NCBI GenBank assembly: GCA_046350855.1
Contig: JAXLZM010000003.1
Location: 12,311 to 76,310, forward strand
Reading direction: 5' to 3'
Origin: Candidatus Anderseniibacteriota bacterium
GTDB taxonomy: Bacteria; Patescibacteriota; JAUYIX01
Length of the DNA: 64,000 nt
Shown here: positions 40,109 through 59,348 of the stretch, one piece after another
Numbering within the stretch: position 1 is the first letter of the stretch
How the letters are laid out: each line of letters starts with the position of its first letter
Notes under the pieces: generated by a model
Databases searched by the model: none
The model's input: only the letters and a program-made list of their open reading frames with translations
Told to the model about the DNA's origin: nothing
Position numbers and translations under genes: made by a program

Positions 40109-40129
40109 GGCTTAGCTGCTCCGGACTCC

Positions 40130-41176: not shown

Positions 41177-41724
41177 CCGAGGACCTCGATGGTTGCCGTG
41201 CGGCGACCAAACTGGATGGCGTCATGGTAGTGACGAAACCAGATGTCGACGTGACCCGAGGGAGTCGCGCTACGGTCGTGGACCGTAAAGATGCGATCTC
41301 CAAACAGCGACGGGATGCGGAACTTAGTACCAAAGGGCAGGGCGTATGGGCCAGCTGCAACACCTTCTGTACACCACGTACCGTCAGCCGTGTACCAGGG
41401 TGAACCGTCGGTTTGGCCAACTTCACTGTTGTAGCCAGTAACCTGGACGTTCAAGGTGAACTTCACACGGAACTTGGGAGCCTGCTTAGGCAGGGCTTTG
41501 CGCACCTTACCCGCTTGCGAAGCCTGGATCGTAGCGATCGACTTCTGCAGCGGAAAGAGTTGGGCCTGAGCCGGAGGGAGCGACTTAACGAGAGAGGCTG
41601 AGAGTTCAGCCTTACCGTTGATCGCAAAGAGTCCGGTCCAAGCGGCAGAGATGGCAATGAGCAATGCAAGCAGACGAGTCTGAGTACCCTGAGTGATTTT
41701 GAGTGTTTTTGAGGTGAGTTTCAT
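41173..41724 (-). CDS. 3D-domain (RlpA-like double-psi beta-barrel) cell-wall protein, membrane-anchored
   Basis: VTGYNSEVGQTDGSPWYTADGT...TVHDRSATPSGHVDIWF matches the 3D domain. Confidence 0.65.
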   Translation of the reverse strand: MKLTSKTLKITQGTQTRLLALLIAISAAWTGLFAINGKAELSASLVKSLPPAQAQLFPLQKSIATIQASQAGKVRKALPKQAPKFRVKFTLNVQVTGYNSEVGQTDGSPWYTADGTWCTEGVAAGPYALPFGTKFRIPSLFGDRIFTVHDRSATPSGHVDIWFRHYHDAIQFGRRTATIEVLG

Positions 41725-42033
41725 TGGTTTTGTTAGGGCCCCGGGTCACCCGTGGATGCGGGCTAGCACGATCAAGGCATTGAGGTTGTTTAGACCCCAT
41801 GCCTCGTTACGTACGAGGCAAATAAAAAATGCCCTCTAGCAGGGCACTTCTTGTCGCTGTTTTCTCGACAAGACGGATACCCTAGCAGATTTTAGGCTCC
41901 GAGTCAATCCACCCGGTTGAACCGCCTTTTTTGTGGCTCTATAAAGCCACTTTAAGCTATTTGCCAAATCTAAAAAATCATCAAAAATAGACATTTTCGA
42001 CCTCAAAAAGTGGTCAAAAACACGTCAAGTCCA

Positions 42034-42070
42034 AGCTTAAAAAAACCTAAAAACCGGCCTTTTAGCCGGT
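42034..42070 (-). terminator. Intrinsic terminator downstream of tRNA-Gly(GCC) and the DUF1704 gene
   Basis: On the minus strand ACCGGCUAAAAGGCCGGU is followed by UUUUUAGGUUUUUUU. Confidence 0.6.
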
Positions 42071-42099
42071 ACTTGCGTTACGTTATATGGCTAAATCCC

Positions 42100-42174
42100 T
42101 GGAGCGGGAGACGGGATTCGCACCCGCGACCTCTTCCTTGGCAAGGAAGCGTTCTGCTCCTGAACTACTCCCGC
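42100..42174 (-). tRNA. tRNA-Gly (anticodon GCC), CCA encoded
   Basis: The reverse complement gives GCGGGAG acceptor, anticodon stem CTTCC/GGAAG with loop TTGCCAA, T-arm GCGGGTGCGAATCCCGTC. Confidence 0.85.
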
Positions 42175-42243
42175 AAAAAGCTCGCTGTCGAGCTGGATTC
42201 TGTCCAGTTCGCCCAGTCTAAACTGCAAAAAGAGGCTTGTCTA

Positions 42244-43785
42244 CTAGTCTTTCTCAAGATCTTTTAGATCGGTGTCGGTGATCTCAAGTTGGTCCAAAAC
42301 CCATACATGGCGCTCGTTAGTTGGGTCAAATTTACCCAGGTTGAACCGATGTGCCTCTTCTGGCTTTTTGCCGATTAACTGCCAAATAGCCATGTTGCCT
42401 TCTCGATAAATGTAATCGCGGGTAAAGACCGCACCGGGGGTTTTGCCGTCGGTTCCTCTAAAGGTACGGACGGTGTTATCCCAGCCAACATTGGTGCCCA
42501 TTTCTGTGGCTTTGCGTATTTCCATTCCTTGGCTGATCCGGCGCAAAGTTGCATAGCGCTTGTTGATTTCGAAGAGCTCTCTAAAGTTTCTGGGCTTTCC
42601 GTCTATGCCAAGCGCCATACCAACCCCAAGATGGCCTGACGGAATTCCAAAGTCGACCCGGCCTTCATAGGCTTGTTCTGCTGCAATTGCGCCGCCCTCT
42701 TCTCCGCGAATATACCGATCAAGACCCGCTACTCCGAGCAGGCGCAATCTGCTGCGCTCACCACGCTCTCTGCGTAAGGGATGGGTAATAACTTCATGCA
42801 ATACGTAGGGCACTAAATCATTTATTTTTACGGGGTCGGAGGCCTGCTCAGGAACATAGACCTCTTTTTTATCCTGGCTGACTGCATAGCCTTTTCTGTT
42901 TGGATCGATAACGACTTTCCAACCAACTTTATCTAGACTAATGGTTTTAAGCGCGCTCTCGAACTCCTGGGCGACTTGCTCTGAGGTTAAGTCAAGTTGT
43001 TCTGGATGTTGCTTATTTCGCGGCAATTTAGTCTTCTCTACCCCGTATTTTTGCTCAATAGTCTCGATTGTTTCCTTAAACTGCGTACGATTTACTTTTT
43101 CGTAGTAGTCAATGGTCTCTTTAGGTGGGTACAAAAATTGCGTCTCACTCTGGCTTTCACTTGGGAGAAGTGCAAAAAACTCATCAGCCATTTTTTGAAC
43201 TTCTGGATTGTCAGGATGCAATTCACGTGCTTTTTCGGCTTCTTGTCTCACACCGTTAACGGTTGCAAAAAACATATCCTTATCTGGTTTACCAAAAACA
43301 TATTCGGAATAGCGCATAAACCGTCGGCTTTTACCTTCAGCCGTTGCACGAAGCATGCGGATGCTGGCGATCGATTCATTAATGCGCCAAAGATACGCCA
43401 TACGCATAACTAACTCTGGATCCTGCCTAGTCTCTTTTTTCCAAAGATCCGCCATCTTTCTACCAATATCTTTTTCGTTGAGTTGTAGCTCCTTCTTAAG
43501 GCTGAGCAACGTGTCTTCTTGTTGTTGTAATTGAGTCAGCTTCTCTGGAGTCAATTTGGGATAGTCGAGTTCTGGACTCTCGATTTCACCCTTTAAGAAA
43601 GCCTCCCGCTGGGAAGCGATTTTTTGCGGCGTATTCTCGATTGAGCTAATTACTTCAACCCCAAGATAGGGCTGAACACGATCATAGAGCTCCTTATCTA
43701 GCTGAGTTTTTTCCTGCTTTGGAGACTCCGCTGGAAGACCCAGCTCGTACGGTGAAGGACCGCGTTCAACGGAAAACATGGGCAA
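42244..43785 (-). CDS. DUF1704 / QEGLA-motif family protein (MATCAP-like putative HExxxH metallopeptidase), paralog A, AT-richer
   Basis: AYLWRINES, FGKPD, LHEVITHPLRRE, LDRYIRGEEGGAIAAEQAY and GKFDPTNERHVWVLD, all shared with the neighbouring paralog. Confidence 0.5.
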   Translation of the reverse strand: MPMFSVERGPSPYELGLPAESPKQEKTQLDKELYDRVQPYLGVEVISSIENTPQKIASQREAFLKGEIESPELDYPKLTPEKLTQLQQQEDTLLSLKKELQLNEKDIGRKMADLWKKETRQDPELVMRMAYLWRINESIASIRMLRATAEGKSRRFMRYSEYVFGKPDKDMFFATVNGVRQEAEKARELHPDNPEVQKMADEFFALLPSESQSETQFLYPPKETIDYYEKVNRTQFKETIETIEQKYGVEKTKLPRNKQHPEQLDLTSEQVAQEFESALKTISLDKVGWKVVIDPNRKGYAVSQDKKEVYVPEQASDPVKINDLVPYVLHEVITHPLRRERGERSRLRLLGVAGLDRYIRGEEGGAIAAEQAYEGRVDFGIPSGHLGVGMALGIDGKPRNFRELFEINKRYATLRRISQGMEIRKATEMGTNVGWDNTVRTFRGTDGKTPGAVFTRDYIYREGNMAIWQLIGKKPEEAHRFNLGKFDPTNERHVWVLDQLEITDTDLKDLEKD

Positions 43786-43911
43786 AGTATACCGTACCAG
43801 CCAGGTTGACCAAATGACATTTTTATGCTATTTTGCGGGGCTCTTTTGCCCTTCGACAATCCGTAAAAATCGTATTCAATCTGGTACGCAACCCATGAGG
43901 ACAAGCAAGAT

Positions 43912-45354
43912 ATGAGTGAACCAACGCACGTGGACTCAGAACTGTACGATCGGCTCAAGGAGCCCTTCGAGATGGACGCTCTTACCTATATCCAGGTCGA
44001 CGCAAAGTTGTTCCTGGCACAACGCCAGGACTTTTACGACGGCAACCTGCGCAACCCCGTCTTTACGTACAGCGGCTTGACCAAGGAAGTCTTGGCCAAG
44101 ATGAACCAGTTCGAGATGTTGCTTTTGGAAGCTCGCAAGGAACTGCGTGGAACGGATCGTTCCTACGCCCGCATCATGCAGGGCGGCTGGAACTCCATCA
44201 CGCGATCTCTGGAGACTGGTCGTCGTTTTGCCTACCTCTGGCGTATCAATGAGGCGCTCGCCAAGGTGCGACTGATCAAGGCCTGCGCCTCTGGCAAAAC
44301 CAAGCGCGCTCAACGCTACTCGATCTTCATGTTCGGCAAACCGGACTACAAGATGTATCGCGCAAGCGTGGCCGAGGTTCGTGCTGAGGTGCGTCGCTGG
44401 CAAGAGGCGCAGCCGGAGAACGAGGATCTCAAGCGCGTTGGCAACGAGTTGCTGACTCTCCTGCCCGATATCGGGCCGGAGGAACAGTACGAGTTGCCCA
44501 AGCCCAACCTGATCGCCAAACTCACGCAGTACGTGCGTGAGCAGTTCAAGTCGGTCATCGAATTCTATGAGAACCGCTACGGTGCGGACAAGACGCAGCG
44601 CGGTCTCGAGAACCTCGGCGACCTACCGTTTGTGACTAAGGAGGAAGCAATCGTCGGGTTCCAGTTCGCCATGCAGGTCTTCGCTCTGTTCAAGTTCGGG
44701 TTCAACCTTATCGTGACCTGGGCCAAGCGCGGCTATTCCGTCTCCCAAAAGGAGCTGGCAGTGTTCATTCCGGCCGATCCTGACTGCGGCAAAATCAAGT
44801 GCAACGAACTGGTGCGCTGGACGCTCCATGAGGTCTGCGTACACCCGCTTAGACGGTTGCGCGGACATCTCAGCAAGCTGCGACTTATGGAGTTTGGCCT
44901 CGATCGTTACGAGGCTGGAGAGGAAGGTTCGGCAATTGCAATCGAAGATGCCTACACCGGAGAAGTGCTGGGCTATGGTTTTGCGACCGGACCAGTCGCT
45001 GTCTCTCTCGCTCTCGGACTGGATGGTACGCCGCGCGACTTTCGGGACTTGTTCGAGATCATGTCGTTGTACGCGATCTGTCGTCGACTAGGGCCTCAAA
45101 AGCTCCCGCTTGAGAAGGCCACTCATGATGGCAAAGTCCTTGCCTTCGACAACACGATGCGGACCTTCCGGAGCGGTGACCCCTCCATTCCTGGTCGCGT
45201 CTTTACCAGGGACATCATCTACCGGAGAAGCAACCGTGCTTTTTGGGAGACGATGGAGTCGCATCCGGAGCGACTCGAGCACTTACTGGACGGCAAGTAC
45301 GATCTCGCCAATGAGCGACACATGTGGATTCTCGAATGCATCGAGGCTGCATGA
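43912..45354 (+). CDS. DUF1704 / QEGLA-motif family protein (MATCAP-like putative HExxxH metallopeptidase), paralog B, GC-richer
   Basis: FAYLWRINEA, FGKPD, LHEVCVHPLRR, LDRYEAGEEGSAIAIEDAY and GKYDLANERHMWILE. Confidence 0.5.
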   Translation: MSEPTHVDSELYDRLKEPFEMDALTYIQVDAKLFLAQRQDFYDGNLRNPVFTYSGLTKEVLAKMNQFEMLLLEARKELRGTDRSYARIMQGGWNSITRSLETGRRFAYLWRINEALAKVRLIKACASGKTKRAQRYSIFMFGKPDYKMYRASVAEVRAEVRRWQEAQPENEDLKRVGNELLTLLPDIGPEEQYELPKPNLIAKLTQYVREQFKSVIEFYENRYGADKTQRGLENLGDLPFVTKEEAIVGFQFAMQVFALFKFGFNLIVTWAKRGYSVSQKELAVFIPADPDCGKIKCNELVRWTLHEVCVHPLRRLRGHLSKLRLMEFGLDRYEAGEEGSAIAIEDAYTGEVLGYGFATGPVAVSLALGLDGTPRDFRDLFEIMSLYAICRRLGPQKLPLEKATHDGKVLAFDNTMRTFRSGDPSIPGRVFTRDIIYRRSNRAFWETMESHPERLEHLLDGKYDLANERHMWILECIEAA

Positions 45355-45425
45355 ACTACAACGGCCCCACTCTTCGAAAGAAGAGTCGGGGCCTTTTTCT
45401 TTTGGGGCACTTTGTTAGCCCCTAT

Positions 45426-46892
45426 TTATGCTAGCCGGTAAATCTCGAACGCATCCCCCACGCCCTTAAGCGAGACGGTGTCTTTTTTGGCCTTGAGTTT
45501 GGCGTCGGACATAACATCCCGTACACGCGGAGCAACATAGACTTGCGGTGAGACGACGATCTCGCCCGCGTTAGCCGCGTTTTGGACGCGAGCCGCGATG
45601 TTGACGGTCTGACCAAAGTAATCCAGGCGCTCATTGAGTTCGACCGCGATACAGGGACCAGTATGAATACCGATTTTGAGGACGAGGTCCTCGTCCATCC
45701 CCACACTTTGGATTTCGCGGTTCATCCGAGCAGCGGCCTCCAGAGCGGCAGCGGGATCCGAGAAGCTGGCCATAATGGCATCGCCGATAGTTTTGACCAC
45801 GGCTCCACCGGACATTTTGACGATCTTGCGTAGGAGGGCAAAGTGCTCACGGACGATCCCGTAGGCTTTAAAGTCGCCAATACGACGGTACATCTCGGTC
45901 GACCCCTTAAGGTCAGTAAATAAGAGGGTCAGGTTTTTGAACTCCAACCCATTACCGGACGGGATACTCTCCGAGCGAAACAGGTCCCGAAAAGTCTGGG
46001 TCGTGACCAGGCGCTTACCATTGAGATAGGGCAAAAAATCGGGCTTGGGTTTTTTACCGGGCTTACCAAAGCTGTCTTCCATTAACTTTTGTGGATCGCG
46101 GATCAGGCCGTAGGCGCGATCGCGACCGACGCGGTTACGGATGGTGAAGTGTTGTTGGCCCGGAGCCAACTTGACCTCATCGGGGATAAAGGCGCCATCG
46201 ACATGCTCCACCACTACCGCATGCTGCTCACTCTTAGGCGTCACATCGATCTCCAGATTAGCGTGCTCCAAGGGAGAACCGAGCGAGTAGTGGCCGGGGG
46301 TGAGCTTGGTGTCGATGGCAGTGGCACCGGGTTTGAGCTTACCGGTCAGGATGGCGCCTTGTTCGATAATCTCTTTTTTGCGCTCGAGATCGGTGACGCT
46401 GGTCGAAAAAAAGACCGTCATGACGTCGCGGATGGTGGTCAGCTCGGTCGGAGTATGAAAACGAATGTGACGCACGGAGGGCGAGACGGTAAAGGCCACC
46501 TCCACGTTATCGTCGATGTTGCTCTGCACCGGCAAGCGGCAGAGGCCACAGTTCATGTTTTGGTTGAGGGCTTTGAGACCACCGGCCGTGGTGATAAAGC
46601 CGCCACAGAGCGGACAGAGTACGCCCCAGTTAAAGTCGAGAAGTCCGGCGTGCGCGGCGTGCAAAAAAAGATCGATCCCGACCGACTCGGGGATCTTGTG
46701 GGCCGCGGCATAGCGCAGTGGGCTCATCCTAAAGAGCTCTTCGTCTGAGGCGTTATCTAAAAACTCGGCAAAGTCGTCGATGACCCGAGACTCAAATCCA
46801 CCGTTGGCTCGGACCGCGTCCAAGCGGGCCATGCGCGCAGAGAGCGCCATAGCCTCGGCAACGCGTTCTCGATAGTTGGCAGGTTTTGGCAT
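45426..46892 (-). CDS. Class III adenylate/guanylate cyclase with N-terminal Cys-rich (zinc-ribbon-like) sensor domain
   Basis: C-terminal cyclase core (FTDLKGSTEMYRR...VKTIGDAIMASF), N-terminal CPLCGG...CGLC. Confidence 0.75.
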   Translation of the reverse strand: MPKPANYRERVAEAMALSARMARLDAVRANGGFESRVIDDFAEFLDNASDEELFRMSPLRYAAAHKIPESVGIDLFLHAAHAGLLDFNWGVLCPLCGGFITTAGGLKALNQNMNCGLCRLPVQSNIDDNVEVAFTVSPSVRHIRFHTPTELTTIRDVMTVFFSTSVTDLERKKEIIEQGAILTGKLKPGATAIDTKLTPGHYSLGSPLEHANLEIDVTPKSEQHAVVVEHVDGAFIPDEVKLAPGQQHFTIRNRVGRDRAYGLIRDPQKLMEDSFGKPGKKPKPDFLPYLNGKRLVTTQTFRDLFRSESIPSGNGLEFKNLTLLFTDLKGSTEMYRRIGDFKAYGIVREHFALLRKIVKMSGGAVVKTIGDAIMASFSDPAAALEAAARMNREIQSVGMDEDLVLKIGIHTGPCIAVELNERLDYFGQTVNIAARVQNAANAGEIVVSPQVYVAPRVRDVMSDAKLKAKKDTVSLKGVGDAFEIYRLA

Positions 46893-47037
46893 AACCGATT
46901 AGTTGTACAGCATTTTGAGCAACTATTCAACCGGTGCGGCTCACATTGTTGTTACGCCAGATACAAAAAGGCCCCGGTTTACACCGGGGCCTTTAGTTCA
47001 CCCTGCCTTAGGTGGGACAGAGTGGCAGACTAGACGC

Positions 47038-47430
47038 TTACGCGCTTACCGCCGAGGACGAACCATTCTTACCCAAGAAAGCGGCAAGAAGTGCCCAGAT
47101 ACCGATCGCCAAGTGCAGGATCGAGTCGGCTGGGTTCTCAAGGTTTGCACCCAAGAACGCCGGGGTAAAGATCGAGTAGATACCGACCAATACGCCGATA
47201 ATTCCGAGCAAGACCACGACCCACTTTTGGACCATTGCTGGTACTGCAAAAGCGAGGATCAAGGCGACAACACCCAAAATGGTGTGGGCCCAGTTCTCAC
47301 CGTTATCAAACCACCAGGCATCGCCAAAGATGGATTGATCTGGGGTGGGACCAATGATCCCAAAGAACCCGATGACTCCGACCAACAGCAATACGATGCC
47401 GCCGATCAGGAGGAACTGTTTAGCGTTCAT
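47038..47430 (-). CDS. Hypothetical membrane protein (four TM helices)
   Basis: 130-aa hydrophobic ORF. Confidence 0.4.
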   Translation of the reverse strand: MNAKQFLLIGGIVLLLVGVIGFFGIIGPTPDQSIFGDAWWFDNGENWAHTILGVVALILAFAVPAMVQKWVVVLLGIIGVLVGIYSIFTPAFLGANLENPADSILHLAIGIWALLAAFLGKNGSSSAVSA

Positions 47431-47559
47431 ATAGGTAGAAAGCTTAATGGATTAGGGGCCAAGGCGGCCGTTAGGGCATTTATAGCACATCGCTTCCACA
47501 AATGGAGTGGCCTTTTCCACATCAGCTGCCGGTTGAACCGGGGCCGTCGGACAGCCCCG

Positions 47560-47634
47560 TGGAGCGGGAGACGGGATTCGAACCCGCGACCTTCTCCTTG
47601 GGAAGGAGACATTCTACCCCTGAACTACTCCCGC
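47560..47634 (-). tRNA. tRNA-Gly (anticodon CCC), CCA encoded
   Basis: Near-duplicate of tRNA-Gly(GCC). Anticodon stem TCTCC/GGAGA with loop TTCCCAA. Confidence 0.85.
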
Positions 47635-47647
47635 CAGTTTCTCCCTA

Positions 47648-47939
47648 TGGTGCCGAGGGCCAGGATCGAACTGGCGACGCCAGCCTCTTCCATACTTGGA
47701 CTATCTCATCATCCTTGCCTATTTGTTCAGACAAGGAGCTGGGCGCTTGTGTAGGAGTATTGTTGGGACTCACCTACTAGTCTCTACGCCTTCCGGTGGA
47801 ATTTAACCCGTACCGGCTTGGTTCGGGATTGGCAAACTTACGCTTGCTTTTCCCCGAGTTCACCCAGTTTTTAAAGATTCATTACTGAACCATGCCCCAA
47901 AGAGTCTAGGGCTGCGCTCTACCACTGAGCTACCTCGGC
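47648..47939 (-). tRNA. tRNA-Phe (anticodon GAA) interrupted in the anticodon loop, after U33, by a 217-nt group I intron; exons 47908..47939 and 47648..47690
   Basis: 5' exon GCCGAGGTAGCTCAGTGGTAGAGCGCAGCCCT, 3' exon GAAGAGGCTGGCGTCGCCAGTTCGATCCTGGCCCTCGGCACCA. The spliced product folds into a canonical cloverleaf with loop CUGAAGA. Confidence 0.8.
47691..47907 (-). mobile_element. Group I self-splicing intron (subgroup IC3-like, no ORF) in tRNA-Phe
   Basis: P1 pairs exon GCCCU with intron GGGGC, with a U.G wobble at the 5' splice site. P10 pairs intron UCUUU with 3' exon GAAGA. The R element GUAGAGACUAGUAGG and S element GAUGAGAUAGUCC (P7) resemble the Azoarcus and Anabaena tRNA introns. 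Omega-G comes before the 3' splice site. Confidence 0.8.
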
Positions 47940-47983
47940 ACGGCTGGCATACTAACAGCTCATCCTGCCTCAATCAACTCATG

Positions 47984-48060
47984 TGGTGGGCACTGTAGGG
48001 ATCGAACCTACGACCTCGTCAGTGTAAATGACGCGCTCTAACCAGCTGAGCTAAGTGCCC
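47984..48060 (-). tRNA. tRNA-Val (anticodon TAC), CCA encoded
   Basis: The reverse complement gives GGGCACT-TAGCTCAGCTGGTTAGAGC, anticodon stem CGTCA/TGACG with loop TTTACAC, T-arm GTAGGTTCGATCCCTAC. Confidence 0.85.
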
Positions 48061-48719
48061 AAAGATGCTTTAGTTACACCCTCTATCCAACCAAGAATAG
48101 ACAATAATAGCCGAGTGTCACAGATAACGATATCGAAGGTACCATATGGTAACGAATCTCGCTTACCCTTGCTGTTGCGGTTGCGTTTTCGATATGTTTT
48201 GTAAAACTGTTTTAGCGGAATACCAGAAACTTTTGACCAGTAGTGTTCTGCGAACCGATGGTCAAGGTGACCATGGATATGAATATGTCCTCTGAACTTT
48301 TTTTCTGGAACAGCACAAATCTCTTTAAAAAACCGCATCATTATTTGAACACTTTTTGGATCTCCATTGGAGAACCCAACTAAACCGTGATTTGTCTTTC
48401 TGCCCTCTCCCCAATACAAACCAATGCCCAGAATCCACAGATCACGCCGCGAAATCCGCTTGATCGATGCTGCCGCTATACTAGTAGTAACCGCACGTTT
48501 TACCATTTCATGTCTGAGCCTCGTTTGACGCCTCGATTCAATAACCTCAATGCTTGTATGACGTGCTTTAAGCCTATTAACTTGTTTTGGAGTTAGAGAT
48601 ACGTCGCGGACCCAAAGACTTGCTGTACTTTTTGAAATAGCAAGGGCTCGCGTAATTTGTTTCAAGGAGTATCCCTTTGAGCGTAAAATTCTTGCCCTAC
48701 GTCGCTCGATAAGCTTCAT
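48051..48719 (-). CDS. Putative homing endonuclease-like protein (HTH plus single LAGLIDADG-like motif ILGIGLYWGEGRK), paralog of 14434..15120; last 10 nt overlap tRNA-Val(TAC), stop is TAG of the tRNA D-stem
   Basis: Paralogous to 14434..15120. AT-rich by eye. AT-rich promoter-like upstream region with TATTATGAT. Confidence 0.5.
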   Translation of the reverse strand: MKLIERRRARILRSKGYSLKQITRALAISKSTASLWVRDVSLTPKQVNRLKARHTSIEVIESRRQTRLRHEMVKRAVTTSIAAASIKRISRRDLWILGIGLYWGEGRKTNHGLVGFSNGDPKSVQIMMRFFKEICAVPEKKFRGHIHIHGHLDHRFAEHYWSKVSGIPLKQFYKTYRKRNRNSKGKRDSLPYGTFDIVICDTRLLLSILGWIEGVTKASLGT

Positions 48720-48756
48720 GGGACTATTTTATCATAATACACTATCCCAGGGTTCG

Positions 48757-48790
48757 ATTTTTTAAATTAAAAGCGCGGGAGTACCGCGCT
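48757..48790 (-). terminator. Intrinsic terminator downstream of small ORF 48853..49122
   Basis: On the minus strand AGCGCGGUACUCCCGCGCU is followed by UUUUAAUUUAAAAAAU. Confidence 0.55.
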
Positions 48791-48804
48791 CTATACAGTA
48801 GTTA

Positions 48805-48837
48805 GGGAGAGGGAGGATGAACCACGGTTCATCCTCC
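48805..48837. repeat. SD-containing hairpin element, copy A (AGAGGGAGGAUGAACC-AC-GGUUCAUCCUCC)
   Basis: 12-bp perfect stem. Shares the AGAGGGAGGA prefix and the ...CCUCC closing arm with the elements at 63150..63186 and 63557..63589. Confidence 0.6.
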
Positions 48838-48852
48838 GGGAGAACTAGGGAG

Positions 48853-49122
48853 CTAGGAAGCGACGTCGCTCGCGAAGGTGGTCTCGGCCAGCACAGCCAA
48901 GCCCGCCAGACTACCCTGGTCGAGCATCTCGAAGTGCTTGCAGATCGGGCAACCGTGTGCACCGGCCGGGTGGATGAGGAGACGCTGCGTTTGGTGGTTG
49001 GTCTTGGGATTGTCGGTCGAGCCGTTGGGGCAGAAAGGTGAACGATCGCTGAACTGCCAACCGAACGAGTACGCAATGGGGAGTTTGCGGAGCTGATCCT
49101 CGGTCAGATTCTCAAATGCCAT
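48853..49122 (-). CDS. Hypothetical 89-aa Cys/His-containing protein (CPNG...HGCPICKH), own RBS and terminator, flanked by 16-bp perfect inverted repeats
   Basis: Strong SD (AAGGAG, 5 nt, ATG). Terminator at 48757..48790. Inverted repeat TACAGTAGTTAGGGAG at 48794..48809 and its reverse complement at 49152..49167. Confidence 0.5.
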   Translation of the reverse strand: MAFENLTEDQLRKLPIAYSFGWQFSDRSPFCPNGSTDNPKTNHQTQRLLIHPAGAHGCPICKHFEMLDQGSLAGLAVLAETTFASDVAS

Positions 49123-49287
49123 CCTTCTCCTTATGGGGCGTATCCGAAGCCCTCCCTAACTACTGTATGTGGTTCATACTGAACAAATCCCCTGAGGGGA
49201 CAAACAATGAGCTTATAGTAGTTGTGAGGTCGCGTCAAGCCTGGGCCTTTTTGGATTGGTCCGTCGGCTTGTATCTGAATATGTTCT

Positions 49288-49373
49288 TGGTGCGCGAGGG
49301 GGGATTCGAACCCCCAAGCCTTGCGGCACATGCACCTCAAGCATGCGTGTCTAGCCAGTTGCACCACTCGCGC
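49288..49373 (-). tRNA. tRNA-Leu (anticodon GAG), long variable arm, CCA encoded
   Basis: The reverse complement gives GCGCGAG-TG-GTGCAACTGGCTAGACAC, anticodon stem CATGC/GCATG with loop TTGAGGT, a long variable arm and T-arm GGGGGTTCGAATCCCCC. Confidence 0.8.
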
Positions 49374-50025
49374 AGTAACCAGCAGGGTACGGATCTTCCC
49401 AGAGTATTGCAAGCGCCTTCTGTTTTTTTCTTGCCAGATGAGGAGAGGCGCTATCTTGATAGAAAGCTGTCAGGATTTTGCGTGCCTCGTGTTTAGAAAA
49501 CTTGGCCTGATAGGCCCCCGAACCACTTGTAACATGGCCCTTGGCACCAATAGTTTGTTGTGTTGCTTTAACCAGCCACTTTGCAAATTGAGCACTAGCC
49601 GTTGCGAAAGCTACATAGAACATAAAACTGCTCCGCCAACGCGGGTCCCAATATGCATAGACAGTTCCATCACCGTCGAATAGGCCCCTTAAAAAGTCAG
49701 CAAAAAAGTTCGGTGGAATACTCAACTTACCTAGCGTTCTAGATTTTCTAGGAGTTAATCCAATCGAAAGTAGAAAACGATAAAAAGTAACATCTCCAAA
49801 CTGGAGCTGATAGCCATTGCTACGTCCTGTAAAACCACTTTTCTTTTTGCTTACCCGATTCTTAATCGCCAAACACTTTTTTAAGGTTTGGATAAGATCA
49901 AGATTATTAGATGTAAAAAATAGATGGCGACCGTCTGGAGAAAGACAACCATCGCTCGCCATAAGGCCAACGACATAGGCCATATTCGAGCTCCATTTAC
50001 AGTTTATCCGACCTAGTGGTCTCAT
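49351..50025 (-). CDS. LAGLIDADG homing endonuclease (two motifs: VVGLMASDGCL and LRGLFDGDGTV); last 23 nt overlap tRNA-Leu(GAG), stop is the TAG of the tRNA D-loop
   Basis: Classical double-motif LAGLIDADG. The C-terminal codons (ASGATG, stop) are read from the tRNA sequence GCGCGAGTGGTGCAACTGGCTAG. AT-rich by eye. Confidence 0.85.
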   Translation of the reverse strand: MRPLGRINCKWSSNMAYVVGLMASDGCLSPDGRHLFFTSNNLDLIQTLKKCLAIKNRVSKKKSGFTGRSNGYQLQFGDVTFYRFLLSIGLTPRKSRTLGKLSIPPNFFADFLRGLFDGDGTVYAYWDPRWRSSFMFYVAFATASAQFAKWLVKATQQTIGAKGHVTSGSGAYQAKFSKHEARKILTAFYQDSASPHLARKKQKALAILWEDPYPAGYCASGATG

Positions 50026-50047
50026 TAATTGACCATAGCAAATTCAT

Positions 50048-50065
50048 CTTAAAAAAAGATTAAAT
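50048..50065. repeat. 18-nt intergenic motif CTTAAAAAAAGATTAAAT (copy 3 of 3, one mismatch), 22 nt upstream of the LAGLIDADG start
   Basis: 17/18 identical to copies 1 and 2. Confidence 0.65.
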
Positions 50066-50089
50066 CCAGAGATCAACCTGGATAACCGC

Positions 50090-50734
50090 TTACCCTTGCA
50101 TCTCCCGCAAGAGCTTTTCTTTTTGGTGTTGCTCTTTGGCGGCTTTGAGCACGGCCGGAATCTTTTTAAAGTCTTCCATGAGGGTGCCGCGTAGACTGCC
50201 GTTATAGAGCGCCGCGGCGGGGTGGTAGAGCGGAAAGAACACTCGTCGGACCCCATCCGGTGCCAGCGCCCGCATAGGCTTGCCGTGACAGACCGAGATG
50301 CGCTTGTTTGGGATAAAGTGGCCCAGACTGTGACGACCGAGCAAGACGATTACGACGGGATCGATAAGTTTAACCTGCGGACCGAGCCAAGCAGAGGTAC
50401 ACGCCGCGACTTCGTCGGGCAGCGGGTCACGGTTATTAGGCGGCCGGGATTTAACGACATTGGTAATAAAGACGTCCTTACGGTCCATCCCGATCGACTC
50501 GAGCATCTCCTGCAAAAACTTCCCGGCCGCCCCGACAAAGGGTTTACCTTGGAGATCTTCGTTTTTACCGGGACCCTCACCAATAAACATCACCTCGGCG
50601 TGCGGATTGCCGTCCCCTGGCACGGCATTGGTGCGTCCTTGCGCCAAGCGACAGCGCGTACAGATTTTTACGGCAGCAGCAATCGCCTCCAAATCCTGTA
50701 TTTCTTGGGGTGATGGTGGCGCGGTCTCGGGCAT
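50090..50734 (-). CDS. Uracil-DNA glycosylase, family 4
   Basis: CTRCRL...GEGPG...FVGAAG motifs of UDG family 4. Confidence 0.85.
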   Translation of the reverse strand: MPETAPPSPQEIQDLEAIAAAVKICTRCRLAQGRTNAVPGDGNPHAEVMFIGEGPGKNEDLQGKPFVGAAGKFLQEMLESIGMDRKDVFITNVVKSRPPNNRDPLPDEVAACTSAWLGPQVKLIDPVVIVLLGRHSLGHFIPNKRISVCHGKPMRALAPDGVRRVFFPLYHPAAALYNGSLRGTLMEDFKKIPAVLKAAKEQHQKEKLLREMQG

Positions 50735-50738
50735 ACGG

Positions 50739-51827
50739 TCAGTCTAGTTGTTCAACCGTTTTTTTGAGCCAGGCCACGTCGGCAACTCGTCCCGACTCTT
50801 CCGTCTCGAGCACTAAGTCCTTACCCCGTACACAGGGTGAACCAATTACCGCCGCGAGCCCCTCGTACCCAATGTATCCCTTGCCGAGTGTGTGGTGCCG
50901 ATCGTGTCCGCCACCGAGCTTGGTCTTACTGTCATTAAAATGCAGCATGGGGATGCGCTTCCAGCCAATAAATTTGTCGATCTGACCAAAAACCTCGGCA
51001 ACTTTGTCGGGAGTACGGATGTCGTACCCCGCCGAGAACATATGACAGGTGTCCATGATAGCGCCGATGCGTTTTTCTCCTTTAAAGCGGCCTAGTATCT
51101 CGCCCATGTCCTCGAACTTGCCGCCCACATCGTTGCGCTGACCGGCCGTGTTCTCCAGGCAAATCACTACGTTTGAGTTTTTGGTCTTTTGCAGCACCTC
51201 GTCGAGCATCCGGGTCACACGGGCCTTGCCCTTTTTGACGCCCGAGCCCAAGTGGCTCCCCACGTGCATGACAAAATACTTTGCCTGGATGCGATCCATC
51301 AGTCCGACTTCGCGGATAATGTAGGTTTGCGAAAAATGCCACGTGCGATCGTCGGGCGAGGCTGCGTTTACATAATAGGGCGTGTGCACATAGACGTTAC
51401 GGATCGGCGACACGGTGCACGCCTGGATGAACTCCTTCTCTTCGGTCGGCGTCACGACCCGCCGCACCCGTGAGCGTGGGCTGGAAGTAAAAATCTGGAT
51501 GGCATCTAGTTCAAACTCGTTACCACGCTTGAGGGCCTCGCAGTAGCCACCTGCGATCGAGACGTGTGCACCAATCCCAACTTTGTGAGCGGCTTTACGC
51601 GCTCGTACACTACTCTGCCGGCTGAGCGGGTTGCTCAGGTTGGCCGTCTTGCGGCTCGCGTGGGATTGGTTTGCGGCTGACTTTGCCAAAGACTTTTGGC
51701 TTACCGTTTTTGACCGGCTTGTAGCCAATCGGTTTGGCAACCACGCTCGGCTGCCCCGTTCCCCCTGGGCCTTTTTGGGTTTTGCCGCTGGCGCTTTTAC
51801 CGTTTTTGCTGAGAGTCGCTTGCTCAC
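50739..51827 (-). CDS. nfo: Endonuclease IV (Nfo) with about 80-aa Lys/Ala/Ser-rich N-terminal extension; start uncertain (extension overlaps the CBS gene by 218 nt)
   Basis: GIGAHVSIAGG plus the AP-endonuclease 2 metal-binding pattern. No in-frame ATG or GTG lies between the 51827 ATG and the conserved core. Confidence 0.75.
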   Translation of the reverse strand: MSKRLSAKTVKAPAAKPKKAQGERGSRAWLPNRLATSRSKTVSQKSLAKSAANQSHASRKTANLSNPLSRQSSVRARKAAHKVGIGAHVSIAGGYCEALKRGNEFELDAIQIFTSSPRSRVRRVVTPTEEKEFIQACTVSPIRNVYVHTPYYVNAASPDDRTWHFSQTYIIREVGLMDRIQAKYFVMHVGSHLGSGVKKGKARVTRMLDEVLQKTKNSNVVICLENTAGQRNDVGGKFEDMGEILGRFKGEKRIGAIMDTCHMFSAGYDIRTPDKVAEVFGQIDKFIGWKRIPMLHFNDSKTKLGGGHDRHHTLGKGYIGYEGLAAVIGSPCVRGKDLVLETEESGRVADVAWLKKTVEQLD

Positions 51828-52275
51828 GTGCGATCAATTTAAGTAAATCGTGCCTACTCACAATACCAACCAATTTGCCGTTGTCGATGATCGGGATCGG
51901 GTTGGCCTTTGTTTCTACCATCTTGGTGGCCAGGCGGCTAATCGGATCGCTGGATTTAAGTGAGATCACGGGACTGGTCATGATGTGTTCGGCCTTGCTC
52001 CCCAGCAGCTTTTGGATCTCGGCCTCAACACTGGCGCTCGAACGCAACATAATAAAACTATGCAGCGCCGACAAAAATTGCGGCGGATGAATGTTAGATT
52101 TTTGAGAAACGAGATCGCTATCCGTTACGATTCCGACAACACTGTCCTTCTTGACCACAGGCACACCCGTGAGATTGTGTTGCACCATCAGCTGCGCTAC
52201 ACGCGCAACCGACGCCAGCGGCCCCACAGTCACAACCTGCGTTGTCATGATGTCTCGCACGTATTTCTCGTTCAT
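51610..52275 (-). CDS. CBS-domain pair protein with Lys/Pro-rich C-terminal tail
   Basis: Two CBS motifs (IMTTQVVTV...LTGVPVV; IMTSPVISL...IPIIDNGKLVGIVSRHD). Confidence 0.7.
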   Translation of the reverse strand: MNEKYVRDIMTTQVVTVGPLASVARVAQLMVQHNLTGVPVVKKDSVVGIVTDSDLVSQKSNIHPPQFLSALHSFIMLRSSASVEAEIQKLLGSKAEHIMTSPVISLKSSDPISRLATKMVETKANPIPIIDNGKLVGIVSRHDLLKLIAREQATLSKNGKSASGKTQKGPGGTGQPSVVAKPIGYKPVKNGKPKVFGKVSRKPIPREPQDGQPEQPAQPAE

Positions 52276-52293
52276 TTGCGTTTTGCATAGAGA

Positions 52294-53619
52294 TTAGTTT
52301 TTGCCGGTAGAACCGCTTGCAGGCTTGCTGCCGTCGGTAGAACCAGACGCAATAGATGATAGCAGCTTTATGGTTTTTCGGTTGCGAATAATTTCTGCAA
52401 CGTAGTCGCGGTAGGCGGGCGACTGCACGGTCCTGATCACCTCTTTATTACCGGGGTGCTGTTTAAGCGTAGCGTTGATTTCTGACTCGACCTCCGCGTC
52501 GCTGGCTTTGATGTCCTCTTGGTTAGCGATCTTACGGATCAAAAGGCCAATGGTAATACGTTTTTTGGCTTGTTCGACCCAACCTTTTTTGAGGTCGGTT
52601 AGCGATTTGTTGATGCTGGTGAGGTAGTCGTTAAAATTTGCGCCCTGCTGGACTAGACTCGACTCAAGTTCGCGTGCCATCTTGTCGAGTTCTCCCTGCA
52701 AGAGCACGTCCGGAATCTCGAGCGTAGTTTGTTCAGCTAGTTTGGTGAGAAGCTCGGACTCAAAGCGTTCATTTTCTTTAGCCTTGGCCTCGAGTTCGAG
52801 GTTTTTGCGGAGTTGCGACTTGAGATCGGCCAGATTTTTAAAATTACCAACCGATTTTGCAAACGCGTCATCCAACTTTGGCAGAACTCGTTCCTTAACG
52901 ACGTGTAACTTGATGTGCGCTTCGGCCGCCTTACCCGCCAAGTCTTTTTTGCCGTAATTCTTGGGGAACGTAATCGGGAAGTCTTTTTCTTGACCAGCGC
53001 TCATACCGATGAGTGCCTCCTCAAACCCTGGGATAAACATGCCATCGCCAATCACAAGTGGATGCTTGGTCCCCTGCCCGTGCTCGAGCGGGACCTTTTT
53101 TTGACTGATGTTAAAGTCAATCTCGACCGCGTCGCCTTTTTTGGCGGGGCGTTTGACTTCGGCCTCCTTAGCTCGGTCGCGGGCAAACATGCGCAGCATG
53201 CGCTCGATTTGCTCATCAGCTACTGACTCGGACTTTTTTTTGGGCGTAAGTTTTTTATACTCCGGCAGACTAAACTCTGGCAGAACCGCCGCGGTGGCCT
53301 TAAAAATGAGAGGATTCCCAGGGGCAAACTTAACAATATCGATCTTGGGTTGACCGATGACCTCCAGCTTTTTCTCGAGGACCGCTTTGCCATAGACCTC
53401 AGGGATTGCGAGATTGGCGCTCTCTTCTAGGAGGTGCAGTGGATCGATGTGCTTTTGGGCCAAACTGGTCGGTACTTTGCCCGGGCGGAATCCCGGCAGC
53501 GACAATTTAGCTGCCAAACGTGCAAGGGCGCGAGTTTTGTAGTTTTGCAGTTCTGCCTCAGAGACCTCGATAGTGAGCTCGACCGTAGACTGCGGTAGTT
53601 GCTTTATATCTAGCTTCAT
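52294..53619 (-). CDS. tig: Trigger factor
   Basis: N-terminal ribosome-binding region (GFRPGKVP), FKBP-type PPIase middle domain and C-terminal arm. Confidence 0.9.
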   Translation of the reverse strand: MKLDIKQLPQSTVELTIEVSEAELQNYKTRALARLAAKLSLPGFRPGKVPTSLAQKHIDPLHLLEESANLAIPEVYGKAVLEKKLEVIGQPKIDIVKFAPGNPLIFKATAAVLPEFSLPEYKKLTPKKKSESVADEQIERMLRMFARDRAKEAEVKRPAKKGDAVEIDFNISQKKVPLEHGQGTKHPLVIGDGMFIPGFEEALIGMSAGQEKDFPITFPKNYGKKDLAGKAAEAHIKLHVVKERVLPKLDDAFAKSVGNFKNLADLKSQLRKNLELEAKAKENERFESELLTKLAEQTTLEIPDVLLQGELDKMARELESSLVQQGANFNDYLTSINKSLTDLKKGWVEQAKKRITIGLLIRKIANQEDIKASDAEVESEINATLKQHPGNKEVIRTVQSPAYRDYVAEIIRNRKTIKLLSSIASGSTDGSKPASGSTGKN

Positions 53620-53704
53620 TGCGCAAAGAGGCTAACGTTTTATCGGTTTTAGCGCAACCAAAAAGCTATTTTGCTATGAAAACCGTAGTCACTAACAACA
53701 TGAG

Positions 53705-54049
53705 TTATAGACTGAGTAGCGCAACTCCGACGATTGCTAAGCCAACCCCAATTGCCTTGAGGAGAGTAAAGCGCTCATTAAAGAAGAGGATCCCACTACC
53801 TAGGACGATGAGAGCGAACAGCGCTGTTTGGACGATACCAACGGTGCCTAGTTCTGCCTTTTTGACAAAAACATAGAGAAAAATGAGGATCTGTAAAATG
53901 TAGAGTGCCACAACGATAAGCATCAGTGGATTACGGATGGCCTGCGCGTAACTATCAGTTCCAACAGAAACTTTCTTGGTGAGTACGTCTGCCACAGCAA
54001 CGGCCGTAACCGCTACAACAATAAAAAGTAACATCGTAAGTTTGTTCAT
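53705..54049 (-). CDS. Small four-TM membrane protein (SMR/DMT-like)
   Basis: 114 aa with four hydrophobic helices. Confidence 0.4.
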   Translation of the reverse strand: MNKLTMLLFIVVAVTAVAVADVLTKKVSVGTDSYAQAIRNPLMLIVVALYILQILIFLYVFVKKAELGTVGIVQTALFALIVLGSGILFFNERFTLLKAIGVGLAIVGVALLSL

Positions 54050-54123
54050 GGTTATATCCTAGCAAAAACCGGCCGCTAGGGCCGGTTTTGTTGAGGTTAC
54101 TTGGTTTAATTCAACCAAAAAAA

Positions 54124-56151: not shown

Positions 56152-56168
56152 GAGGTGTTAGGTAAGGA

Positions 56169-57479: not shown

Positions 57480-57691
57480 GGTGGTTGGTTTAACTAAGTA
57501 TTTAGGTAGTACAAAAAAGGGCTAGCCTACTCAGCTAGCCTTATGGGGCAACCATATATGAGAATAAACCCACTGTCAACCCTTGATTGACAAAGTGCTA
57601 TTTTTGTGTTAGCAAGGACCGTCGTCCTTTGTCATACCGTGCCTCCCCGCTAGTGCTCTTATGACGAGAGCATTGCCAGGGAGGCAGGACA

Positions 57692-58027
57692 ATGAAAAAG
57701 TTTGGTTTTGATTTTCCGTGGCGGATGATAGGGATCGTAGTCGCATTAGTAGGGATAAGTACCTTCACGATCGATCTGTACTTCGGCCTCAGGAATGGTT
57801 GGGCAATCAGCACGGTCCCACCGGCCATTGCAGAGAAGTATCCCTTCATGACCTACCGCACCTGGTACCTCTATATCGAGGCGTTACTTGCGTTGATGGG
57901 TTGCACGCTCTTCTTGCTTTCCTGGATCAAGAATCCATTTGAGCGAATGGGGCACTGGCTTTCCGCAAATATCAAGGAAGGCTTTTTGTCTGGAGGCAAA
58001 AAGTCTGGCTCCAACAACGTAAATTAG
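57692..58027 (+). CDS. Hypothetical small membrane protein (three TM helices)
   Basis: GGGAGG SD 7 nt upstream of the ATG. Hydrophobic helices. Confidence 0.45.
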   Translation: MKKFGFDFPWRMIGIVVALVGISTFTIDLYFGLRNGWAISTVPPAIAEKYPFMTYRTWYLYIEALLALMGCTLFLLSWIKNPFERMGHWLSANIKEGFLSGGKKSGSNNVN

Positions 58028-58052
58028 CGATTCAGCAAAATGGAGAACACCA

Positions 58053-59168: not shown

Positions 59169-59348
59169 CAGCTAAACGTAGGGAGCAACGAATTTCGTTG
59201 CTCCTCTTTTTTTATTTCGACCTACCGAGCAGCAATCAAGCTCAAGATTGACAAACGGCAAAAAATATGCAATGATCTGTGGTCCTGATGGCTGCGAACG
59301 TTGTTTCCAATCGGCCATAGCGAGCCGCACCCAAGGAGGTAAATCGCG

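Follow-up and report, generated by a model that had tools for sequence, protein, structure and literature searches.

A group I intron between U33 and G34 of a tRNA-Phe(GAA) gene from Candidatus Andersenbacteria

Described tRNA introns and the present locus

A group I intron at position 33/34 of tRNA-Phe(GAA) is already listed for Doudnabacteria GCA_016699995.1 in Tables 1 and S3 of Nakagawa et al. (2026, mSystems, PMC13011429), where the 95 genomes of Table 1 include the Phe(GAA) 33/34 combination in this single Doudnabacteria genome. In the same paper, representatives of the Patescibacteria 35/36 tRNA intron class are reported to self-splice in vitro, near-identical Asn introns are classed IA1, and Table S5 gives a tRNA-Phe(GAA) 31/32 intron of subgroup IA3 in Elusimicrobiota GCA_023213235.1 (Nakagawa et al. 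2026, PMC13011429). A list of 21 tRNA/intron settings is provided in a preprint (Williams 2020). Position 33/34 is the classical tRNA-fMet site. We analyzed a 64-kb stretch of DNA (the window) from Candidatus Andersenbacteria (Patescibacteria), in which a tRNA-Phe(GAA) gene is split between U33 and G34 by a group I intron. A sequence-only reading of this locus had presented the Phe(GAA) host as rare, a claim that does not survive the published 33/34 listing (PMC13011429), the 21 further loci described below and the long-known fMet site at the same position. The intron of the window is thus a well-supported further example of a kind, Phe(GAA) 33/34, already reported in the phylum.

Among the closest described counterparts, the intron of Doudnabacteria GCA_016699995.1 likewise interrupts tRNA-Phe(GAA) at 33/34 in a host with G37, contains no ORF and has a similar length (~210 nt, compared with 217 nt in the window), and the core blocks GGGUGAACUCGGGGAA, AAUCCCGA, GUAGAGACUAGUAGGUGAG and AUAGUCCAA are common to both. 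Among the homologs collected here, the intron of L012, whose precursor is nearly the same as the published Doudnabacteria sequence, shares 74.7% identity with the window's intron. The window comes from a different Patescibacteria class (Andersenbacteria), and about one quarter of the intron positions differ; its guide GGGGC pairs with GCCCU, whereas the Doudnabacteria guide GGGC pairs with GCCU of a different anticodon stem, and its 3' tail is shorter and does not pair with the 3' exon. Both introns are known from sequence. The catalytic core is near-identical to that of the Patescibacteria 35/36 tRNA introns, with GUAGAGACUAGUAGGUGAGUCCCAACAAUAAUCCUAC also carried by L002, L006, L011 and L015, but the latter occupy another tRNA and another site (35/36 instead of 33/34), and some contain an HNH endonuclease ORF while the intron of the window has none. 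With the cyanobacterial tRNA-fMet(CAU) intron it shares insertion after the universal U33; the cyanobacterial fMet introns belong to subgroup IC3, some with a PD-(D/E)XK endonuclease, whereas the window's intron lacks an ORF and carries an extra hairpin of putative IA type, inserted between P7 and P3. The Elusimicrobiota GCA_023213235.1 intron is likewise hosted by tRNA-Phe(GAA) and is a bacterial intron of subgroup IA, to which the window's intron may also belong, but it inserts before C32 (31/32), derives from another phylum and has a clearly different core sequence.

The split gene and the fold of its intron

The 5' exon (GCCGAGGUAGCUCAGUGGUAGAGCGCAGCCCU) was read at 47939–47908 on the minus strand, on which all exon and intron positions below are given. 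It comprises the acceptor 5' strand and the D arm, followed by the anticodon-stem 5' strand and then C32 and U33. As the final exon base, U33 contributes the uridine of the wobble pair (U.G) at the 5' splice site. The intron, identified from Rfam RF00028, the minimum free energy (MFE) fold and covariation, spans 217 nt (47907–47691), lacks an ORF, has an IA-like core, starts AGACUCUUUGGGGC and finishes CCAAGUAUG, its terminal guanosine (omega-G) lying at 47691. The 3' exon (47690–47648) begins GAAGAGGCUGG, ends GGCACCA and contains the anticodon GAA, G37, A38, the anticodon-stem 3' strand, the variable loop, the T arm and the acceptor 3' strand, closed by the discriminator A and an encoded CCA (47648–47650). 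Both exons were also recovered by ARAGORN with introns allowed, which returned tRNA-Phe(gaa) i(33,217). When joined, the exons (75 nt) fold into a perfect cloverleaf of -33.0 kcal/mol that ARAGORN calls tRNA-Phe(gaa) with the anticodon loop CUGAAGA, the canonical product anticipated by the sequence-only reading. The exon ends, intron length and strand given there also stood, both on rereading the sequence and by the junction of an intronless ortholog, whose collinearity places the two halves at one locus, as had been supposed. Because the first base of the intron is A and that of the 3' exon G, and because the last base of the intron is G and that of the 5' exon U, the splice boundary is fixed and cannot slide. 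Other splice sites were rejected: none yields a 7-nt anticodon loop, and the sequence itself fixes the junction.

The Rfam model RF00028 (Intron_gpI) matched 47685–47917(-) over its full length (model positions 1–253 of 253), in line with the assignment to group I proposed earlier. The score was 49.1 bits, 0.9 bit under the gathering score of 50, with E values of 2.3e-11 in an 801-nt search and 1.8e-9 in a search of the whole 64-kb window. At the gathering threshold Rfam did not report the intron, and ARAGORN without the intron option made no call at the tRNA-Phe locus. With default tRNA finders and the Rfam threshold the gene is missed, so that the genome would seem to be without tRNA-Phe; this annotation pitfall is the one described for Patescibacteria tRNA-Asn and tRNA-Asp. 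A permissive Rfam scan found no second group I intron in the 64-kb window.

A strict pattern scan of public genomes and metagenomes revealed at least 21 further loci, extending the range of the Phe(GAA) 33/34 intron from one listed Doudnabacteria genome. The 21 homologous introns, from Patescibacteria MAGs and metagenomes, occupy the same tRNA-Phe site and are 62–78% identical to that of the window. One of the ten GTDB loci lies in a MAG titled Gammaproteobacteria, and the record titles of the set also include Saccharibacteria, Gracilibacteria, Magasanikbacteria, Falkowbacteria, Berkelbacteria, Doudnabacteria and Minisyncoccia. An alignment of 11 sequences (the window and ten homologs) was used to assess covariation at 59 pairs from P1 to P8. 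Standard pairs filled 92.7% of the cells over these 59 pairs, compared with at most 50.9% in controls with slid partners, and double changes occurred at 29 pairs, a number matched by 0 of 500 shuffles.

The internal guide sequence CUCUUUGGGGC (47894–47904) was assigned from its P1 and P10 pairing and from covariation. In P1, intron GGGGC pairs with exon GCCCU (47908–47912), with U.G at the splice site as claimed; this U.G pair is found in all 11 sequences, and the helix is lengthened by AGA:UUU. P10, also claimed previously, proved one base pair longer than described, with intron CUCUUU pairing with GAAGAG of the 3' exon (47685–47690) over 6 bp. Within the 11-sequence alignment, double changes were present at three P1 pairs, where GC/CG and CG/AU swaps track the anticodon stem. 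P10 was 93% paired across homologs, with the pair opposite N37 being C:G in six sequences and U:A in four. This pattern of covariation shows co-evolution of the guide sequence with both the anticodon stem and nucleotide 37.

The predicted fold includes the P2 hairpin GGUUCA-GUAA-UGAAUC (47876–47891), which is capped by a GNRA loop, covaries at 6/6 pairs and is paired in 100% of cells. P3 is formed by CUGGGUG (47861–47867) and CGCCCAG (47739–47745), is also present in the cmscan alignment, and is 97.4% paired with double changes at two pairs of the 11-sequence alignment. P4 (UCGGGG with UCCCGA; 47823–47857), invariant in 11/11 sequences, surrounds P5 (GCAAGC-GUAA-GUUUGC; 47832–47847), in which 6/6 pairs covary, and both appear in the MFE fold. 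P6 (CC with GG), which is invariant, and P6a (CCGGU with ACCGG), in which 5/5 pairs covary, occupy 47789–47821. The P7 5' strand, G-A(bulge)-GACUA (47778–47784), lies in the R element GUAGAGACUAGUAGG and pairs with UAGUCC (47698–47703) in the S element GAUGAGAUAGUCC, as judged by alignment and covariation; both elements, like the terminal G, are present as the sequence-only reading had stated. The five P7 pairs tested (G158–A162 with U237–C241) are invariant and paired in 11/11 sequences, and the outer G:C pair and bulged A, read off the alignment, are invariant there too. P7 makes a pseudoknot with P3, and we take it to be the guanosine-binding helix.

A hairpin, GUAGG...CCUAC (47751–47777), separates the P7 5' strand from the 3' strand of P3. 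It shows up as an insertion against the Rfam model and is read here as P7.1; its 5 bp are 100% paired and almost invariant. An extra hairpin at this place is a typical subgroup IA insertion. Of the P7.1/P7.2 pairings that mark subgroup IA, a single conserved 5-bp hairpin is present, and the window's intron is putatively of this subgroup. The P8 hairpin UCCUUGUCU-GAACAAAU-AGGCAAGGA (47712–47737) shows double changes at 7/9 pairs and is present in the MFE fold; that fold, of the intron alone, recovers P2, P3, P4, P5, P6a and P8 with z = -2.75. Of the P3–P9 fold looked for at this locus, the core from P3 to P8 folds and covaries, but no convincing P9 hairpin was found: the intron tail after P7 is only 8 nt long (CAAGUAUG), while most homologs have at least 13 nt. 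The pairing of the tail with the anticodon-stem 3' strand seen in most homologs is absent from the window's copy, and among the homologs a similarly short tail was found only in L007.

Empty sites, splicing and alternative explanations

The tRNA-Phe gene lies in a tRNA cluster, 44 nt downstream of tRNA-Val(UAC) (47984–48060, minus strand) and 13 nt upstream of tRNA-Gly(CCC) (47560–47634, minus strand), with tRNA-Leu(GAG) (49288–49373) located upstream of tRNA-Val. The order Leu(gag)-Val(tac)-Phe(gaa) is preserved in L012 and L024, and in L024 and L026, whose trigger factors are 78% and 60% identical to that of the window, the cluster Leu(gag)-Val(tac)-Phe(gaa)-Gly(ccc) contains an uninterrupted tRNA-Phe. 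The intronless tRNA-Phe of L024 is identical to the joined exons of the window at 75/75 positions. This presence/absence pair with identical exons is useful for studying gain and loss of an endonuclease-less intron. The intronless genes of L024 and L026 also have G37, and hosts with A37 carry the intron with a compensating guide. A link between G37 and the intron was therefore rejected, and with it the earlier emphasis on G37 as a notable trait of the host; in the sequences compared, G37 follows the tRNA lineage rather than the intron.

The trigger factor of the window is 100% identical to a Candidatus Andersenbacteria MAG protein, with the next matches in Parcubacteria and Patescibacteria. 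An identical copy of the locus sequence occurs in the Logan assembly of SRR26348421. The presence of trigger factor, an AP_endonuc_2-family AP endonuclease and UDG indicates that the window is cellular. A phage origin was rejected: megablast of 40000–60000 against 50,697 phage records returned nothing, and blastn matches of the locus extended over only ~75–85 nt, covering the flanking tRNA-Val and tRNA-Gly. We also rejected a recent acquisition of the intron from any sampled donor, as the nearest intron found is only 77.9% identical. We infer that the intron persists vertically, with occasional gain or loss.

The pairings above are compatible with a self-splicing pathway catalyzed by the intron. 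In the precursor, P1 would arise from the guide GGGGC and the final five bases of the exon, GCCCU, so that U33 sits in the U.G wobble. An exogenous guanosine bound in P7 would then attack after U33. The terminal G (47691) would subsequently occupy the guanosine site while CUCUUU keeps GAAGAG of the 3' exon in P10, and attack by the free 3'-OH of U33 would yield the canonical 75-nt tRNA-Phe with the loop CUGAAGA and release the intron. If, as appears, this is the sole tRNA-Phe gene, splicing must work. These findings leave the general understanding of group I introns unchanged.

It is unlikely that the intron is instead decayed and splicing-defective, the gene here being a tRNA-Phe pseudogene with a working copy elsewhere in the genome. 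Such decay would fit the truncated 3' tail, which lacks a convincing P9 and the pairing with the 3' exon present in most homologs, and an Rfam score slightly under the gathering score; moreover, the 64 kb of the window are only part of a contig of ~117 kb, so a second intact tRNA-Phe could lie elsewhere in the genome. However, this copy retains every core helix intact and every invariant base of the core, P1 and P10 form perfect matches with its exons, the joined exons show 100% identity to a functional-looking intronless ortholog, and the gene occupies the syntenic position of the relatives' tRNA-Phe. A single tRNA-Phe is moreover the usual state in the seven rows compared here from the supplementary table of PMC13011429, which count it once in 6/7 Patescibacteria genomes and twice in the seventh. 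The short tail is equalled by that of L007.

Chance resemblance, in which tRNA-like halves flank an unrelated spacer or a plus-strand ORF (46903–47754, 283 aa) is the real feature, has practically no probability, even though default ARAGORN and the Rfam gathering threshold are silent here and this ORF lies on the opposite strand. It is refuted by the RF00028 E value of 1.8e-9 over 64 kb, by covariation, and by a junction identical to the intronless ortholog; 21 homologs also lie at the same tRNA site, and the ORF itself runs antisense to tRNA-Gly, the tRNA-Phe 3' exon and ORF 47038–47430. A true group I intron that splices inefficiently alone and needs a protein helper, e.g., a neighbouring LAGLIDADG-type maturase, is a very unlikely alternative to self-splicing. 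LAGLIDADG proteins can serve as maturases of organellar introns; the intron has only a minimal periphery, which lacks a convincing P9, two genes for LAGLIDADG-fold proteins are found no more than 2.4 kb away, and members of an HTH + LAGLIDADG-fold family lie beside intron-bearing tRNA-Phe genes at seven other loci and, by estimate, at L050. Against this, the window's own member of the family falls in the subfamily linked to tRNA-Val, a gene of this kind is missing from the vicinity of many intron-bearing loci, and those related Patescibacteria tRNA introns reported as tested in PMC13011429 splice without protein. Self-splicing by an intact intron is very probable and is the reading that we favor.

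Neighbouring LAGLIDADG-fold proteins

Two endonuclease genes had been noted in the tRNA cluster; one is supported by a Pfam match and the other by its predicted LAGLIDADG fold. Both lie outside the intron on the minus strand. The former, ORF 49351–50025, encodes a 224-aa protein matching Pfam LAGLIDADG_3 (1.5e-9); its final 23 nt run into the 5' end of tRNA-Leu(GAG), and L024 and L026 lack it at this position. The latter, ORF 48051–48719, encodes a 222-aa protein, and its stop codon coincides with U8-A9-G10 of tRNA-Val(UAC). Its predicted structure has an N-terminal HTH and a C-terminal domain with the alpha-beta-beta-alpha-beta-beta-alpha fold of LAGLIDADG homing endonucleases. LYWGEGxK is located at the end of helix 91–105, giving it the conserved acidic residue and glycine of a LAGLIDADG motif helix; Y102, E105, G106 and K108 do not vary among 26 sequences. 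Sequence comparison of this protein with Pfam LAGLIDADG models and solved LAGLIDADG proteins gave no match, and only weak HTH matches were obtained. The two ORFs were rejected as paralogs of each other (E = 2.2).

The HTH + LAGLIDADG-fold family, which is unnamed, is tightly linked to tRNA-Val and intron-bearing tRNA-Phe genes. We tentatively suggest, as a possibility of rather low probability, that these free-standing proteins of ~220 aa with a single LAGLIDADG-fold domain are putative homing endonucleases at tRNA genes that have colonized Patescibacteria tRNA clusters, the Phe-linked members mobilizing the ORF-less intron in trans. Under the same proposal, the putative targets may differ by subfamily, comprising tRNA-Val(UAC), tRNA-Val(GAC) and tRNA-Phe(GAA). 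Such mobilization in trans, known from phage psbA and nrdB, is termed "collaborative homing". If true, homing in trans would explain the presence of the intron here and its absence from the identical tRNA-Phe of a close relative. The HTH + LAGLIDADG-fold family may be the more interesting lead from this locus. Elsewhere in the window, ORF 14383–15120 encodes a paralog of the ORF 48051–48719 protein (E = 8e-16).

The split tRNA-Phe gene and its intron

On the minus strand at 47939-47648, a tRNA-Phe(GAA) gene is divided into a 32-nt 5' exon (GCCGAGGTAGCTCAGTGGTAGAGCGCAGCCCT) and a 43-nt 3' exon (GAAGAGGCTGGCGTCGCCAGTTCGATCCTGGCCCTCGGCACCA) by a 217-nt insert (AGACTCTTTGGGGC...AGTCCAAGTATG). The joined exons (75 nt) gave a perfect cloverleaf in a computed fold (-33.0 kcal/mol) and were identified by ARAGORN as tRNA-Phe(gaa). 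With introns allowed, ARAGORN returned tRNA-Phe(gaa) i(33,217) from the genomic stretch, in exact agreement with the boundaries claimed by the sequence-only reading; run without introns, it missed this gene and reported 12 other tRNAs in the window. An Rfam scan at the gathering threshold reported no intron. With E-value reporting, RF00028 (Intron_gpI) matched 47685-47917(-) over model positions 1-253, the whole model, at 49.1 bits, just under the gathering score of 50 (E 2.3e-11 in a local search, 1.8e-9 over the whole window), and no second RF00028 match was reported in the 64 kb. The covariance-model match that the earlier reading had proposed as a check was thus obtained; the split tRNA-Phe(GAA) is confirmed, and the interpretation given to it is supported. 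That the insert is a genuine group I intron we regard as practically certain.

The helices were assembled from the cmscan alignment, the minimum free energy fold of the intron alone (z = -2.75, recovering P2, P3, P4, P5, P6a and P8) and manual completion. In P1, UUUGGGGC pairs with exon GCCCU followed by intron AGA, placing U33.G at the splice site. The remaining elements are P2 (GGUUCA-GUAA-UGAAUC), P3 (CUGGGUG with CGCCCAG), P4 (UCGGGG with UCCCGA), P5 (GCAAGC-GUAA-GUUUGC), P6/P6a (CC..CCGGU with ACCGG..GG), a 9-bp P8 hairpin and P7 (GACUA with UAGUC), which forms a pseudoknot with P3 and, by our reading, continues past a bulged A to an outer G:C pair. P7 and the P3 3' strand are separated by an extra hairpin, GUAGG...CCUAC, located where subgroup IA introns have P7.1. 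Since only 8 nt are left after P7 (CAAGUAUG), there is no P9 hairpin. The intron ends with G, and CUCUUU pairs with 3' exon GAAGAG as a 6-bp P10; the P1, P10 and terminal G described from sequence are all present.

Intronless relatives and related introns

The window's trigger factor (52294-53619) shares 100% identity with an NCBI protein from a Candidatus Andersenbacteria MAG (116.8-kb contig), the next closest relatives being Parcubacteria and Patescibacteria proteins. The locus was compared with two related genomes, L024 (78% trigger factor identity, 868-kb contig) and L026 (60%, 1.03-Mb contig). Both keep the trigger factor-CBS-AP endonuclease-UDG ... cyclase neighbourhood, with the tRNAs arranged as Leu(gag)-Val(tac)-Phe(gaa)-Gly(ccc), and in both the syntenic tRNA-Phe is uninterrupted (L024:14673-14747 and L026:15302-15376, matching the joined exons at 75/75 and 68/75 positions, respectively). 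These genes fix the junction unambiguously at U33|G34 and reveal the intron to be polymorphic (present or absent) among relatives, though it carries no endonuclease gene of its own. Both also have G37, which had been taken as a peculiarity of the intron host and is instead a trait of the tRNA lineage.

The supposed rarity of a Phe(GAA) host did not hold either. Bacterial tRNA introns were classically known from four settings (Leu 34/35, fMet 33/34, and Arg and Ile2 36/37), a list extended to 21 in the available text of Williams (bioRxiv 10.1101/2020.01.27.920355). Nakagawa et al. 2026 (PMC13011429), covering 95 complete Patescibacteria genomes, already list an intron at 33/34 of Phe(GAA) in Doudnabacteria GCA_016699995.1, which both ARAGORN and tFind detect. 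The published sequence shares long core blocks with the window intron, which therefore belongs to an already described kind. In Elusimicrobiota, the same study reports a subgroup IA3 intron at 31/32 of Phe(GAA). The study's abstract places almost every Patescibacteria tRNA intron in IA, and its available text assigns none to IC and finds few endonuclease genes in tRNA introns. The value of the window intron lies mostly in annotation and comparative material; what is new is the wider occurrence, with at least 21 additional loci, together with guide-exon covariation and the presence/absence pair.

Homologs were collected with an exact pattern (GTAGAGACTAGTAGG, a 40-70 nt gap, ATAGTCC). GTDB species representatives yielded 15 loci, comprising 10 in tRNA-Phe(GAA) 33/34, 4 in tRNA-Asn(GUU) 35/36 and 1 in tRNA-Leu(UAA). 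JGI metagenome records yielded 24, with 11 Phe 33/34 by exon pattern, a further one (L050) by ARAGORN, and the rest tRNA-Asn, tRNA-Leu or unresolved. Going by record titles, the ten Phe loci from GTDB belong to Saccharibacteria, Gracilibacteria, Magasanikbacteria, Falkowbacteria, Berkelbacteria, Minisyncoccia and Doudnabacteria, one coming from a MAG labelled Gammaproteobacteria. The window intron is 62-78% identical to the 21 Phe introns (10 GTDB and 11 JGI). The four GTDB Asn introns have a core almost identical to that of the Phe intron; three of them (L002, L006, L011) carry an HNH-type ORF (…CANCH…) in their 5' part, upstream of the core, and ARAGORN fails on these three. For other Asn introns, from metagenome loci, ARAGORN reports Thr, as described in PMC13011429.

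Predicted splicing and the short 3' tail

When the window intron was aligned with the ten GTDB Phe sequences (59 pairs, P1-P8), standard pairs filled 92.7% of cells, compared with 34-51% when partners were slid by 1-3 columns. Changes on both sides occurred in 29 pairs, and none of 500 shuffles reached the observed values. Covarying pairs were found in P2 (6/6), P5 (6/6), P6a (5/5) and P8 (7/9); P4, the five tested P7 pairs and the U.G pair were invariant. In P1, GC/CG and CG/AU swaps occur in step with anticodon-stem differences, and the P10 base opposite nucleotide 37 is C with G37 (6 sequences) and U with A37 (4 sequences). A guide sequence that tracks its exons indicates an RNA selected to pair with them, that is, to splice.

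We infer that ordinary two-step, guanosine-initiated self-splicing, the most likely function, would restore tRNA-Phe, and that the window copy very probably splices in vivo. Protein-free splicing of Asn and Asp representatives is shown in the available text of PMC13011429. The chief reservation concerns the short 3' tail. By sequence inspection, the anticodon stem's 3' strand is a potential partner for the last 8-10 nt of the intron in most homologs, and this pairing could create a hairpin resembling an anticodon arm around the 3' splice site. This tail repeats part of the anticodon-stem 5' strand (L001, L008, L009, L012, L014 and L041 compared): in L012, whose precursor reads almost as the published Doudnabacteria one, it contains GACGC, the same five bases as its 5' strand, and in L009 and L014 UGCC. 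The window tail (47691-47698) lacks anticodon-stem-pairing bases, as in part does L007. A second tRNA-Phe may exist elsewhere in the genome, our view being 64 kb; weighed against this, the available text of PMC13011429 counts one tRNA-Phe in six of seven Patescibacteria genomes and two in the seventh.

Endonuclease-like genes at tRNAs

Both endonuclease genes noted in the tRNA cluster proved real: the ORF at 49351-50025(-) matches Pfam LAGLIDADG_3 (1.5e-9), and that at 48051-48719(-), of predicted LAGLIDADG fold, carries LYWGEGxK, invariant in its HTH plus LAGLIDADG-fold family at the end of the first LAGLIDADG-fold helix. They run into the 5' ends of tRNA-Leu-GAG (23-nt overlap) and tRNA-Val-UAC (10 nt, U8-A9-G10), respectively. 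Likewise, an HNH ORF (10723-11241, minus) overlaps tRNA-Leu-UAA by 23 nt, and a paralog of the HTH plus LAGLIDADG-fold ORF (14383-15120, plus) overlaps tRNA-Val-GAC by 10 nt (U8-A9-G10). All four homing-endonuclease-like ORFs lie on the strand of the overlapped tRNA and end at a TAG inside it; one might speculate that RNase P, by cutting at the 5' end of the tRNA, would strip the stop codon from such an mRNA. Their segments have 47-49% G+C, compared with ~55% over most of the window. The gap from UDG to tRNA-Leu(gag) in L024 and L026 is too short for the LAGLIDADG gene, tblastn of the four ORFs found no homolog in either locus, and 16 nt separate Leu(gag) from Val(tac) in L012, so the four genes seem to have been inserted in the lineage of the window.

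The HTH plus LAGLIDADG-fold family numbers at least 645 members without names; the few matches carrying an organism name are Patescibacteria-group MAGs. In eight of eight independent loci with varied gene neighbourhoods, the ORF starts ~50-115 nt from tRNA-Val(tac), and the window's ORF at 48051-48719 falls in this Val-linked subfamily. More distant members lie 8-196 nt from intron-bearing tRNA-Phe in seven loci, fetched solely via the intron pattern (L003:2-442, L005:5413-6093, L012:496-1215, L014:434-1129, L034:162-857, L036:892-1596 and L045:1080-1766). An eighth (L050, about 410-1057) is an estimated 100 nt or so away, and L041 has its nearest member at a distance of 1.5 kb. No member adjoins the intronless tRNA-Phe of L024 or L026 (two loci). 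The tRNA linkage suggests putative free-standing homing endonucleases aimed at tRNA genes. Phe-linked members, known from loci fetched by the intron pattern, perhaps mobilize the ORF-less intron by collaborative homing (PMC3984707). This tRNA-linked family is the part most deserving separate study.

At 46959-47034(-), just downstream of ORF 47038-47430, the Rfam model of the sRNA BjrC68 scores 29.5 bits (gathering score 39, E 0.0012); this hit below the threshold probably reflects chance or a hairpin resembling a terminator. The C-terminal parts of two divergently oriented paralogous genes of ~500 aa (42244-43785(-) and 43912-45354(+)) match Pfam MATCAP (tyrosine carboxypeptidase) only weakly; one of the genes lies in a low-GC segment adjoining tRNA-Gly(GCC) (42100-42174).
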